A stretch of 64,000 bases of DNA from an uncultured Elusimicrobia bacterium (GCA_963702895.1 OY969767.1:1664001-1728000), one strand, 5' to 3'; positions 48,331-53,689 are shown, numbered from the stretch's first letter. Notes: generated by a model not told the origin, from the letters alone. Program-made: numbers and translations.

Positions 48331-51027
48331 ATGATCTGCCTGGATACTTTCAAATGCCGCCAGACACTCCCGATCGACGGTAAACCCTTTGAAATCTTCA
48401 GCTTGGCGGCCTTCTCCAAAACGACGGGGATGGATCTTCACCGGCTGCCCTATTCGCTCCGGATCCTCCTCGAAAATCTCATCCGCCATGAAGACGGCCG
48501 CTTTGTCAAAGCGGACGACATCAAGGCGCTCGCGATGCGGGACAAAGATCACGAAATCGCCTTCTCTCCGGCACGCGTGCTGATGCAGGACTTTACGGGG
48601 GTTCCGGCCATCGTGGACCTGGCCGCCATGCGCGATGCCATGAAAGCGCTGGGCGGCAATCCTGAAAGAATTAATCCGCTTGTTCCGGTGGACCTGGTGA
48701 TTGATCACTCGGTGCAGGTCGATCAATTCGGCGACGGAGGGTCCTTCGCCCATAACACAAGCCTGGACTATGAGCGCAACCGCGAGCGCTACGCGTTCCT
48801 GCGCTGGGGGCAGAAAGCCTTTCACGATTTCCGTGTGGTTCCTCCTGGGGCCGGCATCTGCCACCAAGTCAATTTGGAATACCTTGCCGGCGTTGTGATC
48901 GCCCGAAAAATCAACGGAGCGCTTTGGGCTTTCCCGGACACGCTCGTGGGCACAGATTCGCATACCGTCATGATCAACGGGCTGGGCGTGCTCGGCTGGG
49001 GCGTGGGCGGCATTGAAGCCGAAGCCGCCATGCTGGGCCAGCCTAGCTCGATGCTTATTCCGGAAGTGCTTGGCGTTAAGCTAAGCGGCCGTATGAGGGA
49101 GGGCACAACGGCCACCGATGCGGTCCTCACCATCACGGAGAGGCTGCGGAAAAAAGGTGTCGTAGGAAAGTTTGTCGAGTTTTTCGGGCCCGGCATGGCG
49201 GGCCTTCCTGTGGCCGACCGCGCGACCATCGGCAATATGGCGCCCGAATATGGTGCCACCATGGGATTTTTCCCGGTGGATGCTCAGACCTTGCGGTACC
49301 TGGAACTGACCCATCGGTCGGCTGAACAAATCAAGCTGATCGAGACCTATCTCAAAGCCCAAGGTCTCTTCCGGACAGACGAGTCTTTCGAGCCACAGTT
49401 CTCCGACACTCTCGAGCTTGATCTTTCCACGGTGGAACCTTCCGTGGCCGGTCCCAAGCGCCCTCAAGACCGGGTCGCTTTGAAGAACGTGAAAACCTCC
49501 TGGGCCTCTTCTCTTCCCCCACTCCTTGAGAAGAAGGCGAAGAATGACGGCACTCCCACACGGATACCCGCCGACGCCAAAGCCCATGTCTCGCATCAAG
49601 GGTTCAGCTACGACCTCACGCATGGCTCTGTCGTCATCGCGGCGATCACCAGCTGTACGAACACCTCCAATCCTTCGGTCATGATCGGAGCGGGCCTCGT
49701 CGCCAAACATGCTGTGGAAAAGGGTCTCCAGCGTAAACCTTGGGTCAAAACGAGCCTGGCGCCGGGCTCCAAAGTGGTGACGAACTACCTGGAGGCCACG
49801 GGACTCCAGAAATACTTGGACCAGCTTGGCTTTAACCTGGTGGGCTATGGATGCACCACCTGTATTGGCAACTCCGGGCCACTGCCAGAACCGGTCAGCA
49901 AAGCCGTGAAAGAAAAAGATCTTGTCGTTTCAGCCGTTCTTTCCGGAAACCGGAATTTTGAAGGGCGCGTGAATTCCCAGGTCAGAGCGAATTATTTGGC
50001 CTCCCCCCCGCTGGTGGTCGCTTATGCGCTGGCGGGTCATATGGACTTCGATCCCTACACCGATCCTCTTGGAACTGGAAAGGACGGAAAACAGCTGTAT
50101 TTAAAAGATATTTGGCCTACCTCGAAAGAAGTGCAAGAAGCTGTCGGCCAGGTCAACCGGGGTATGTACGCAAAAGAATACCGTGTGATCTTTGATGGGG
50201 ATGATCGGTGGAAAGCCCTCCCTTCACCTACCGGGCAGCTCTTTCACTGGGATTCCACTTCCACGTATGTCAAAAATCCCCCCTATTTTGAAAACATTCA
50301 GAAGAAACCAGCCGCTCTGCTCGACATCCAGAACGCCCGGGTGCTCGCGGTGCTGGGGGATTCGGTCACAACCGACCATATCTCGCCAGCGGGTTCGATC
50401 CCCCAAGACAGCCCAGCCGGACAATATCTCTTGGGGCGCGGCGTTGTCCCGAAGGATTTCAATTCCTACGGCGCGCGCCGCGGCAACGATGAGGTCATGG
50501 TCCGTGGGACTTTCGGCAATATCCGTTTGAAAAACCTTCTCGCTCCCGGCACCGAGGGCGGCTACACCGTCCATCTGCCAGAGAAGTCCCCCACCACGAT
50601 CTTTGAGGCTTCCAGGACGTATAAGAAGGACAACGTTCCGCTTCTGGTCATCGCCGGCAAGGAATACGGTTCAGGCTCGAGCCGTGATTGGGCCGCCAAA
50701 GGTCCCGCCCTCTTGGGGGTCAAGGCCGTCATCGCAGAAAGCTACGAGAGAATTCACCGCTCGAACCTGGTGGGGATGGGCATTTTGCCTCTGCAGTTTA
50801 AGACGGGAGAGTCTCGAGAGTCGCTGGGATTAACCGGCGAAGAACTCTACGCGATCGACGGCATCGCTCGGGATCTGAAGCCGAAAAAAGAGGTCCAGGT
50901 CAAAGTGGTGGATGCGTCAGGCAAGGCCCGCACCTTCCACGCCGTCGTTCGCATTGACACCCCTGAAGAAGTGGAATATTACCGCCATGGCGGAATCTTA
51001 CCCTACGTTTTACGGCAGCTGGTTTAA
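48331..51027 (+). CDS. acnA: Aconitate hydratase A
   Basis: [42 protein letters not shown]. Confidence 0.97.
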
Positions 51028-51032
51028 GGCTC

Positions 51033-51132
51033 GTCACCCCGGCGCGTCGTTAGCCGGGGTCCATCATGATAGATTCCGGCCCGCCACACTGCCAGGCGGG
51101 CCGTCCTCCAAAGCTACAGTGGCGGACGGAAT
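51033..51132. repeat. Family-A palindrome carrying a family-B insert (51079-51127)
   Basis: gtcaccccggc..gccggggtcca..tagattccg[insert]ggaat. Confidence 0.75.
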
Positions 51133-51240
51133 ACTTCCTTAGGTCCTAAGACAACTTCTCCCAGAATGGTCATCCCGGCATGCCGTAAGCCGGGATCCAT
51201 AAATACCAACGATAGACCCCGGCTTTCGCCTATTAGACTT

Positions 51241-51415
51241 TTCTCGAGTCTTTGTAGACTCTAGAAGAAGACACCGACAAGAATGGAATAAGTCTAACTT
51301 TCGCCAAGGTGAAAACCATACCCCGGTAAAGACCCCATTCTTTCGTGATCCAAAGCTAGATAGAAGTGATGTCATAAAAACCCTTAATAGGCAAAGCTCG
51401 CATCACGAATGTCGG
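51241..51415 (+). ncRNA. Putative IS110 bridge RNA
   Basis: 5' hairpin, two internal-loop stem-loops carrying target-matching (CTTTCGCC, ACCCCGG) and donor-matching (ATAGAAGT, TAATAGG) segments. Confidence 0.8.
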
Positions 51416-51435
51416 CACTTACAAAAAGGAGCCTT

Positions 51436-52461
51436 ATGAACCCACCTCTCCATTACATAGGCGTTGATATCGCCGATCAAACCTTCAGCGCAACACATTA
51501 CAGCTCAGCCGAACAAAAGTATTCCAAACATCAGACGCTCGCCAATACACCCGCCGGCTTTGAGGAATTCGAAGCCTGGTTTAAGAAACGCGGAGTCGAT
51601 TCCACCAATACCGTGGTCTGCATGGAAGCCACCGGTGTTTATGCGGAGCAGCTCTGCTACTGGCTCTGTGCCAAAGGCTATCCGGTGTCGGTGGAGGCGC
51701 CGCATAAAACCAAACGCGCCTTTCACCCCCTGGGAGCCAAAAGCGACCCCATCGATAGCCGCCAGCTCGCCGAATATGCCTGGCGCTTTTTCGATCAACT
51801 CGCGTTCTGGAAACCCTCGGAAGCCTTGATCGAACAAGTCCGTGTTCTTCTGACGACGCGCGAGCAGCTGACCGGCCAGATGACCGCCAATCAAAATGCC
51901 TTGTCGGCCATCAGCCGGAAAGTCGTTCGCACGATCCTCGCCGAACAAAGCTTCCTGGACACCATCCGCCATCTCAAAGAACAGATCAAAAAAATCGATC
52001 AGGCCTTGGATCAACTGATCTCAAACCACCCCACCATTGGCCCCATGGTGAGCTTGCTGCTCACCATCCCTGGGGTGGGCCGACTCTTGACGGCCCATTT
52101 GATGGTCATCAGCCAAGGCTTTACGCGATCCCTGGAACCCCGCCGCATCGCCTCGTATTTGGGCATGTGCCCACTCGAACACTCCAGCGGAACTTCCGTG
52201 CGCAAGAATGCAAGCTCTCGCGGGATCGGTCCGGACATCATCCGCAAGCTATTGCACCTGGCAGCCCGATCCCTTCGCACACATCATCAGCAGTTCAGGC
52301 ACTACTTTGAAAGAAAAGTACAAGCCGGAAAAGCCAAACGCTTGGCGCTCAACAACATTGCCAACAAACTCTTGCGCATTATCTGTGCCGTACTGCGCAC
52401 AAAGTCACCGTATCTTGCTGACTATAGGTCAGTCAATCCTCGGATCCTAAAAAATGCTTGA
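51436..52461 (+). CDS. IS110 recombinase/transposase (RuvC-like DEDD plus Tnp20 Ser domain)
   Basis: IGVDIA, CMEATG, KSDPID, TIPGVG, SSGTS; SD AAGGAG before ATG 51436. Confidence 0.95.
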   Translation: MNPPLHYIGVDIADQTFSATHYSSAEQKYSKHQTLANTPAGFEEFEAWFKKRGVDSTNTVVCMEATGVYAEQLCYWLCAKGYPVSVEAPHKTKRAFHPLGAKSDPIDSRQLAEYAWRFFDQLAFWKPSEALIEQVRVLLTTREQLTGQMTANQNALSAISRKVVRTILAEQSFLDTIRHLKEQIKKIDQALDQLISNHPTIGPMVSLLLTIPGVGRLLTAHLMVISQGFTRSLEPRRIASYLGMCPLEHSSGTSVRKNASSRGIGPDIIRKLLHLAARSLRTHHQQFRHYFERKVQAGKAKRLALNNIANKLLRIICAVLRTKSPYLADYRSVNPRILKNA

Positions 52462-52504
52462 CCGAGGTCATAGAAATCGGGGTGACGGCCTAAATACTTC
52501 TCGG

Positions 52505-53689
52505 CTAATTCAAGTCGTTGCTGGAAGGGGCGGTTTTGGACGGGATCTGATCGAGCGCCTCGGCGTAGCGAATGTTCTTCACGGAGTAGCTGGTTGAATT
52601 GAGCATCCCACCGGAAGGCGTGTCAAACCATACGCGCTCCTCCAAGCCATCGTAATGGTTGAATTTGCCGACGAAGACTTTCCCTTTGCGTAAGGTGAGG
52701 CGAAGGGGTGCGCCTTTTTTTTGGGCCTCAAAAAACTGGACGAGCTCGGAGTGCTTGCTTTCCTTTTGCGACGCCTGCGCCTGGCCCAATTTCGCAAAAA
52801 GCGAATTCCCCTGGACAGCGGCTTTGAGCGTGATGGGGAGGTTGGGTGTTTCCTTGAGATAGATCAAGCCATCCGCCACGGTCCCCATTTGGTAGGTCGA
52901 GGGCCACAGGGACTCGGTGGCCAGGTATTGGGCGTTGGCTTCGGCATACTGAGGATCGGACGTCGCCAGCTTCCCGGTGACGCCTCGGTCGCACTGTTCC
53001 TCTGGCACCGTGATCACATTGGGGAGAAGCTCATAAGCGTCCATCGTGTCCTTGCGCTTCTTCTTCAGAGATAAAAGATGCGCCCCCTTGTCCCCGTAAA
53101 GAAAGCACATCACATCCTTCGGCGAGAGAAGGGGAAGGGCTTTGCCGGTATTTTCAAACGCGGAAAAGATCTGGGGTCCGATCTGGAGGCCCTGGTCCGT
53201 ATTATTGGACAGCCGCACGCGGAGGAAAACAATCCCTTTATCGATGATGCCGGAGGCCGTCATCGCGTACGGACCTTGGAAAACAGTCACCGATTCATTG
53301 CCGGCAGCCGTCACGCCGGGCTTTTCCCATCCCGTGAGATCACAGACCGTCCCGAGGCGTGGCCTGCCTTTGTTGAGCTGCACTTTGACGTGACGGCTTT
53401 GACCGTCTTGTTGAACGATTTCAATGTCGGAGTCTTCCGGCGCTGCCGTGATGATGTCCGGCAGCAAAGAAGCGTTCTCAGGAACCTGACCGTTGACAGA
53501 GCGGAGCACTTCCCCGACCATGATTCCCGCTTTGGAGGCAGGCGAATCTTTGATGACACTGATGATCTGGCAGGTCTCGGGGGCCTTGGTGGGTTTGGAG
53601 ATCGGGCTCAGGCGCCTGATTTCCGGCGCGCTCGAAGCGCAACCGGTCAGCGCTGCCAAAAAGATGAACCCTGCGAGTAAGCGAAGCAC
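52505..53689 (-). CDS. PDZ-domain lipoprotein
   Basis: LTGC lipobox, SPASKAGIMVGEVLRSVNG. Confidence 0.75.
   Translation of the reverse strand: MLRLLAGFIFLAALTGCASSAPEIRRLSPISKPTKAPETCQIISVIKDSPASKAGIMVGEVLRSVNGQVPENASLLPDIITAAPEDSDIEIVQQDGQSRHVKVQLNKGRPRLGTVCDLTGWEKPGVTAAGNESVTVFQGPYAMTASGIIDKGIVFLRVRLSNNTDQGLQIGPQIFSAFENTGKALPLLSPKDVMCFLYGDKGAHLLSLKKKRKDTMDAYELLPNVITVPEEQCDRGVTGKLATSDPQYAEANAQYLATESLWPSTYQMGTVADGLIYLKETPNLPITLKAAVQGNSLFAKLGQAQASQKESKHSELVQFFEAQKKGAPLRLTLRKGKVFVGKFNHYDGLEERVWFDTPSGGMLNSTSYSVKNIRYAEALDQIPSKTAPSSNDLN

Follow-up and report, generated by a model that had tools for sequence, protein, structure and literature searches.

A five-copy IS110-family insertion sequence with a candidate bridge RNA matched to a hairpin family of its host genome

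The window, which is the whole 64,000-nucleotide stretch of DNA analysed here, contains a recombinase gene and its non-coding upstream region lying between the two halves of an interrupted GC-rich hairpin. A first-pass annotation had proposed that an IS110 element sits between CTTTCGCC (51223–51230) and GGGGTGAC (52479–52486), and that its left end encodes a bridge RNA programmed against a palindrome family of the same genome. The locus raises the question of whether a discrete mobile element is present and whether an RNA carried by it could select the site of insertion. We conclude that an intact insertion sequence, of the IS110 rather than the IS1111 type, very probably occupies positions 51231–52478 and operates in the manner of IS621 of E. 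coli, itself an IS110-family element (Durrant et al. 2024 PMC11208160; Hiraizumi et al. 2024 PMC11208158).

When positions 51231–52478 are searched against the host genome (one contig of 2,724,539 bp), five matches are returned, each 100% identical over element positions 1–1248. In all five copies identity ends at the same bases, with a left flank that finishes in CCGGCTTTCGCC and a right flank that begins with GGGGTGACG, and the 1248-bp IS110-family element therefore constitutes a discrete unit. This span agrees with the one first proposed, and both hairpin halves are where they had been placed. The element, its flanks and its gene are as follows.

51231–52478, + strand: insertion sequence, in five copies at 100% identity over 1–1248; no terminal inverted repeats found at its ends
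51216–51230, + strand: left half of the target hairpin (ACCCCGGC TTTC GCC), comprising the left target and the target core CC (51229–51230); the last 12 nt are identical in the five copies and continuous with GGGGT at 37 empty sites
52479–52486, + strand: right half of the target hairpin (GGGGTGAC), the right target, identical at all five copies
51436–52461, + strand: recombinase gene (341 amino acids; PF01548 and PF02371), with AAGGAG upstream at 51426–51431

The insertion splits the 3′ arm of the hairpin ACCCCGGC-TTTC-GCCGGGGT, with GCC to its left and GGGG to its right, and target duplication is absent at all five copies, which occupy the same 21-bp site. A boundary shifted by one base was also considered, but it would leave the two junction cores with nothing in common and was rejected for that reason. 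Relative to replication (origin near 0 and terminus near 1.38 Mb, from GC skew), two copies are co-oriented and three are opposite, and no bias is visible with n = 5. The copy in the window is located between two convergent genes. The region 51033–51200, between an aconitase-like gene (48331–51027) and the element, carries two more GC-rich palindromes of a related type (about 51033–51066 and 51169–51200) and a terminator-like hairpin.

The 341-amino-acid open reading frame has both IS110 domains, PF01548 (DEDD RuvC-like) and PF02371 (Tnp, with the conserved serine), and scores 193.5 bits against the NCBIfam model NF033542 ‘IS110 family RNA-guided transposase’, for which the cut-off is 140. Solved recombinase structures are matched near full length, namely IS621 (8wt6, E = 3.5e-28) and ISCro4 (E = 1.7e-26). 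Residues D11, E64, D104, D107 and S251-G252 are invariant in a 30-sequence alignment and align to IS621 residues D11, E60, D102, D105 and S241-G242, which are named as catalytic (PMC11208158). Residues 136–297 of the protein (P0001) also give a weak match to the NCBIfam TIGR-Tas RNA-guided endonuclease model, at 29.1 bits against a cut-off of 100.

Metagenomes contain 1885 homologs of the recombinase at E ≤ 1e-10, the closest of which are 87% and 85% identical; the others, among the matches listed, reach at most 65%. In a sample of 400 other genomes from the phylum nothing matched at E ≤ 1e-40, no homolog above 30% identity was found in the genomes of 60 relatives, and the best match among 72,556 plasmid records is only 31.5% identical. 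A single-protein scan of a genome-contig collection returned one distant match (30% identity) that is of no use for covariation. The proposal of a poorly sampled lineage is thus upheld for the recombinase subfamily only, whose nearest relatives come solely from metagenomes, and the orthologs catalogued in the cited papers may already include this subfamily.

The uninterrupted site, CTTTCGCCGGGGT, occurs 37 further times in the genome, 36 of them inside the 20-mer CCGGCTTTCGCCGGGGTGAC. Perfect sites number 42, of which five are occupied and 37 are empty, compared with no occupancy at the 49 sites that differ by one mismatch from the 14-mer GCTTTCGCCGGGGT (Fisher p = 0.018). All five copies sit between CTTTCGCC and GGGGT, the mapping outcome that the first-pass annotation had anticipated, and its description of the palindrome family as a multi-copy landing site is borne out by five of five copies in the same site, with 42 such sites available.

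The target hairpin is embedded in a composite repeat of about 200 bp, found at G000:C1 about 440095–440295 and in at least 15 other places, with 70–98% identity among copies and often with a rightward extension, ggcacaaaaaagtgcatcgagttcagacgatgaggca. Because this repeat is present in both empty and occupied versions, the copies of the element represent separate insertions rather than segmental duplicates. Three CTTTCGTCGGGGT sites (G000:C1 698267, 974475 and 2590253) were evaluated as possible excision scars and rejected, since each carries a matching G-to-A change in its left arm (CCCCGA...TCGGGG) and they are thus ordinary variants of the hairpin. The compensatory pair in these variants suggests that the hairpin shape is maintained. 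Among 30 related genomes, five contain the 17-mer target (10, 4, 1, 1 and 1 times) and none contains a close recombinase homolog. Three same-genus genomes, which are fragmented and 73–89% complete, have no copy of the 17-mer.

The 205-nt left end of the element has a minimum free energy (MFE) of −52.4 kcal/mol (z = −3.95) and comprises, as first described, a 5′ hairpin, a closing stem and two stem-loops with large internal loops.

51241–51266, + strand: 5′ hairpin (core GAGTCT-TTGT-AGACTC, 51246–51261), from the MFE fold
51274–51279, + strand: 5′ arm of the closing stem, pairing with 51410–51415 (helix 1; both-side changes in nine of ten pairs)
51410–51415, + strand: 3′ arm of the closing stem (helix 1)
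51280–51342, + strand: target-binding stem-loop, with a basal stem, a GTCT/AGAC stem, an internal loop and an apical GGT-GAAA-ACC (helices 2–4)
51343–51409, + strand: donor-binding stem-loop, with a basal stem, an AGCT/AGCT stem, an internal loop and a weak apical stem (helices 5–7; from the covariance-model alignment)

Eighty metagenomic loci of relatives at 39–59% identity were fetched, and 62 left ends, including that of the window, were aligned. Base pairs were counted for the closing stem, the target loop (basal, GUCU/AGAC and apical stems) and the donor loop (basal, AGCU/AGCU and apical stems). Across the 62 left ends, 89.7% of cells hold a standard pair, compared with 76.2% for shuffled alignments and 29–50% when partners are slid by one to three columns, and 31 of 38 pairs exhibit compensatory changes on both sides. 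None of 500 shuffles reaches the observed values; the shuffle controls overstate significance because the relatives are not independent, whereas the slid controls are free of that weakness. In the target stem-loop, helices 2–4 are paired in 98.7%, 100% and 92.6% of cells, respectively, and eight of nine basal pairs are compensatory. RNAalifold independently recovers the main stems. The 5′ hairpin is without covariation support because the length of this region varies among relatives. The left end of the subfamily has a conserved, covarying fold, and the two-loop structure first proposed, with its closing stem CCGACA/TGTCGG at 51274–51279 and 51410–51415, stands.

In 79 of 81 sources (62 training rows and 17 others; five are cut by contig ends), a covariance model built from the alignment places the RNA ahead of the gene, and the two misses have less than 80 nt upstream of the gene. 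Applied to the IS110-type loci of this genome, the model recovers only the five copies and misses three other IS110-type elements. The RNA of the window copy scores 99.4 bits, among the lowest few full-length matches, with relatives reaching 151.9, and its donor-loop apex is weak, with two of three family apical pairs able to form. A scan of positions 50900–52800 against Rfam 15 (E ≤ 10) yielded no family match, the sole match being at chance level (E = 7) and outside the element. In the single-sequence MFE structure, GUGAAA in the apical loop is paired to the guide bases UUUCGC (51299–51314), an interaction that is absent from the family consensus and that, if formed, would hide the left target guide.

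The internal loops carry four putative guide segments, given here with the end of the element that the left donor guide would recognize.

51298–51305, + strand: left target guide CUUUCGCC (CUUUCG+CC, the sense of the left flank plus target core), identical to 51223–51230 at eight of eight positions
51320–51328, + strand: right target guide ACCCC+GG, then the handshake dinucleotide UA; complement of CC+GGGGT
51360–51368, + strand: left donor guide AUAGAAG+UG (51360–51367 is AUAGAAGU), against the right end ATAGAAA+TC (ATAGAAAT), with a G·T wobble at position 7
51385–51393, + strand: right donor guide UAAUA+GG, then the handshake CA (51385–51392 is UAAUAGGC); complement of G+CC+TATTA at the left junction
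52470–52478, + strand: donor-left ATAGAAA plus donor core TC, the right end of the element

All four loop segments reported in the first-pass annotation are present (CTTTCGCC at 51298–51305, ACCCCGG at 51320–51326, ATAGAAGT at 51360–51367 and TAATAGG at 51385–51391), including the 7/8 match at ATAGAAGT, where the odd position is the G·T wobble. The same wobble G is also seen in several relatives whose donor-left position 7 is A (L054, L028), by an uncounted reading of the table. The right donor guide is 91% complementary to the left junction over 11 nt. All four guides obey in their orientation the rule stated for IS621 (PMC11208160), whereby a loop pairs through its 5′ side with the bottom strand and through its 3′ side with the top strand. 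When the 205-nt left end was shuffled 100000 times, the 8-mer match arose 98 times, the 7-mer match 562 times, both target matches three times and all four guides never.

Guides and flanks agree across relatives as well. For the left flank (seven bases plus core), on average 6.46 of 9 positions match the 5′ strand of the first loop, compared with 4.55 for cross pairs (n = 56). For the right junction (core plus five bases), 6.59 of 7 positions match the complement of that loop's 3′ strand, compared with 4.78 (n = 58, 42 of them perfect). Neither value is reached by any of 2000 shuffles in these roughly 55 metagenomic relatives, a control that again overstates significance among related sequences, and the covariation between guides and targets that the first-pass annotation had set as a check is thus found. 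The left-guide match is imperfect in many relatives, with 29 of 56 scoring 6/9 or less.

Position by position, in 52 distinct loci, c1, c2 and RT1–RT5 find a partner in the 3′ strand of the first loop in 87–100%, whereas RT6–7 do not, and pairing between the target-loop handshake base and donor-left position 7 occurs in 94%, compared with 50% in the control. The donor-loop handshake base pairs with target-left position 7 in 94% (control 82%), and across the family the right donor guide pairs at c2 and RD1–3 in 98–100%. In the window copy, one of the two handshake bases pairs in each loop. This contact and its covariation are as published for IS621.

Contigs of four sequencing runs contain further versions of the element. 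Run X1 carries an identical sequence with the flank of another copy of this genome and may be the source sample. Run X4, a metagenome from another study, carries a diverged relative with 36 differences and 12 gaps over 51217–51527 (311 nt), in which the left and right flanks are the same and the guide 8-mer at 51298–51305 is unchanged. Run X2 yields one 221-nt contig (depth 2.36) that has the flank CTTTCGCC and five adjacent changed bases at 51297–51301, with CGCC as the only guide part still matching the flank. The changed guide could reflect ongoing natural reprogramming, insertion that tolerates mismatches or a fault of assembly, and the contig may be a chimeric unitig. If real, it would mean that insertion tolerates distal mismatches, which would count against strict guide–flank matching; distal left-guide positions of ISPpu10 are reported to tolerate mismatches (bioRxiv 10.64898/2026.03.19.712850).

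The first-pass annotation assigned a CC-type core to the system, which is correct for the target and incorrect for the donor. The right junction reads TC in all five copies here and at 76 of 76 determinable loci of relatives, and CC in none. The left junction reads TC at 60 of 68 loci, CC at seven (this element and L028, L031, L032, L095, L101 and L049) and CT at one doubtful locus. Because right junctions read TC and the 37 empty sites read CC, TC is assigned to the donor core and CC to the target core of this element. Donor and target thus do not share one core dinucleotide, as would be expected of IS110-type bridge elements; only the second base is common to both. Among the 52 distinct loci, this copy alone has G, and not A, facing the first core base in the right target guide, and G occupies the first-core position of the right donor guide in this copy, L049 and L043. 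A guide with G at this position can pair with C, or with T by wobble.

Every informative element, comprising all five copies and the six diverged relatives with left CC, has CC at its left junction and TC at its right. IS621 is reported to cut the top strand just 3′ of the core, with cuts on either side of the 2-base core (PMC11208158), and under such a top-strand exchange the left junction would be the target core and the right junction the donor core. Two-strand exchange over a 2-base overlap, followed by replication, would leave about half of the insertions reversed, and none is. A tentative reading of this pattern, possible though on balance doubtful, is that only top-strand sequence is inherited, in which case the subfamily would be a natural marker experiment for IS110 movement. 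Preprints describe integration of CazIS110-1 as mainly top-strand and copy-out (bioRxiv 10.1101/2025.10.25.684509) and excision of IS621 as single-stranded (bioRxiv 10.64898/2026.08.31.748434). The junction cores seen here are what top-strand transfer predicts, although the preprints report bench results on other elements and ours is a natural junction pattern only. The difference between donor and target cores could give independent, sequence-only support in the debate over single- versus double-strand transfer.

The core pattern would be explained equally well without single-strand transfer, if the cuts overlap by the second core base only or if copies with CC on the right, the reverse products, have been lost, and we give this possibility a little less than an even chance. 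It fits the observation that the second core base (C) alone is invariant at both junctions. It is also in keeping with the left donor guide, which is mismatched at the second core base here and never pairs there in the relatives inspected, so that guide use of the core differs from that of IS621. Against it, 60 of the 68 determinable left junctions have the donor's T at the first core base, a position that the guides cover, and the reported cut sites of IS621 flank a core of two bases (PMC11208158). A limited literature search, which is not proof of novelty, gave the ISPpu10 preprint as its sole match, and unequal donor and target cores are not described in the portions of that preprint that we cite.

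Two motifs at the ends of the element suggest how the left end could be expressed.

51234–51239, + strand: TAGACT, −10-like half of a putative promoter; TAGACT in 59 of 63 relatives with both motifs
52458–52463, + strand: TTGACC, −35-like half, overlapping the stop codon; TTGACN in 63 of 65 relatives with both junctions

When the ends of this element are joined through the core, TTGACC and TAGACT lie 18 nt apart. Both motifs are present in 63 of the 65 relatives with both junctions, and the spacer is 17 nt in 62 of those. No sigma-70-like promoter was found in the linear copy, and the −35/−10 pair forms only across the circle junction, from which transcription would presumably start. A junction promoter is reported for IS621 and ISPpu10, and the layout here is the same.

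On the model that we favour, the element would be excised from its site as a circle, which would join the right and left ends such that TTGACC and TAGACT make a promoter. Transcription of the left end from this promoter would produce a bridge RNA of about 170 nt, whose first internal loop would pair with both strands of the host hairpin site and whose second loop would pair with the joined ends of the element itself. The 341-amino-acid DEDD/serine recombinase would then exchange strands beside the core, and the element would land at the GCC/GGGG boundary within the 3′ arm of the REP-like hairpin, which is present in 42 perfect copies. Expression of the RNA, circle formation and catalysis are predicted by homology, and the intact parts of the locus suggest that the bridge system is complete, as originally put forward.

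A less favourable reading, which we consider unlikely, accepts a real IS110 element and takes the copies as recent fossils of one past burst, with a bridge RNA or a weak donor apex that no longer supports transposition. The two of three family pairs retained by the donor-loop apex and the low covariance-model score of this RNA are compatible with such a loss, as is the junction-promoter spacer, which departs by one nucleotide from the length seen in the 62 relatives. The assembly contains no circle-junction or tandem motifs, and the contigs of the four runs also lack such joints, although these contigs are uninformative on circles. Decay is opposed by the 100% identity of the five copies over 1248 bp, by the intact reading frame with its catalytic residues and by the four guides, all of which still match in this copy. 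It is very improbable that the protein or the shape of the target hairpin picks the site, with the left end serving as a leader that controls recombinase expression and the matches as a by-product: the target is a hairpin, a target stem-loop is reported to add specificity for ISPpu10 (10.64898/2026.03.19.712850) and left-guide matches are imperfect in many relatives, but guide segments vary with flanks across relatives while stems stay fixed, all four guide matches arise in none of the 100000 shuffles, and the homologs IS621 and ISCro4 have solved structures, those of IS621 being complexes with bridge RNA and DNA (PMC11208158).

The preferred reading, that of an IS621-like bridge system, can be set against the elements described so far. 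As in IS621, there is a two-domain recombinase with aligned catalytic residues; a left-end RNA made up of a 5′ hairpin and two stem-loops, each with an internal loop; loops whose 5′ side has the sense of the top strand and whose 3′ side is complementary to it; guides that take in the core, with handshake bases present; insertion into REP hairpins; and promoter motifs that are brought together at the circle junction. This element differs from IS621 in its distant recombinase (a full-length match at E = 3.5e-28), in its core (TC in the donor and CC in the target, compared with CT in both for IS621), in a right target guide that pairs five bases plus the core rather than four, and in an RNA that has no Rfam or experimental record.

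A second comparison is with ISPpu10 and ISPpu9 of Pseudomonas putida (bioRxiv 10.64898/2026.03.19.712850; PMC12288879). The element resembles ISPpu10 in having several IS110 copies, all in one REP family, in a target within a GC-rich stem-loop and in tolerating wobble pairs at guide interfaces. Host, target sequence and core (CT there) differ from those of both Pseudomonas elements. In IS1111-type elements with a seekRNA, the inverted repeats are subterminal and the non-coding region follows the gene (Siddiquee et al. 2024 PMC11187229). These elements share with this element a DEDD transposase and RNA-guided site choice, the latter judged here by sequence; unlike them, the element has its non-coding region upstream of the gene, only 17 nt after the stop codon and no inverted repeats.

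The architecture, REP targeting and junction promoter are already published for IS621, ISPpu9 and ISPpu10, and knowledge of the mechanism is unchanged. What is distinctive is the distant, metagenome-only recombinase subfamily, the TC/CC core and the natural inequality between donor and target cores. The locus offers a clean natural example of a bridge RNA, with a 1248-bp element, a 341-amino-acid recombinase, a defined site of 13–14 nt and 42 landing pads in one genome, and its roughly 80 diverged relatives allow guides and flanks to be compared side by side. For bridge-recombinase engineering it would be a useful extra ortholog, with a TC/CC core instead of CT.

Three further kinds of IS110-family element occur in the genome; their repeat units measure about 1285, 1356 and 1400 bp and are present in three, two and three copies, respectively. 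One three-copy set lies at G000:C1 130612–131379, 180032–180799 and 1125879–1126646, the two-copy set at 417207–417650 and 646151–646594, and the second three-copy set at 672048–672497, 2232380–2232829 and 2428033–2428482. Their recombinases are 24–27% identical to the one described here, their loci give no match to the covariance model, and several of them adjoin GC-rich hairpins.
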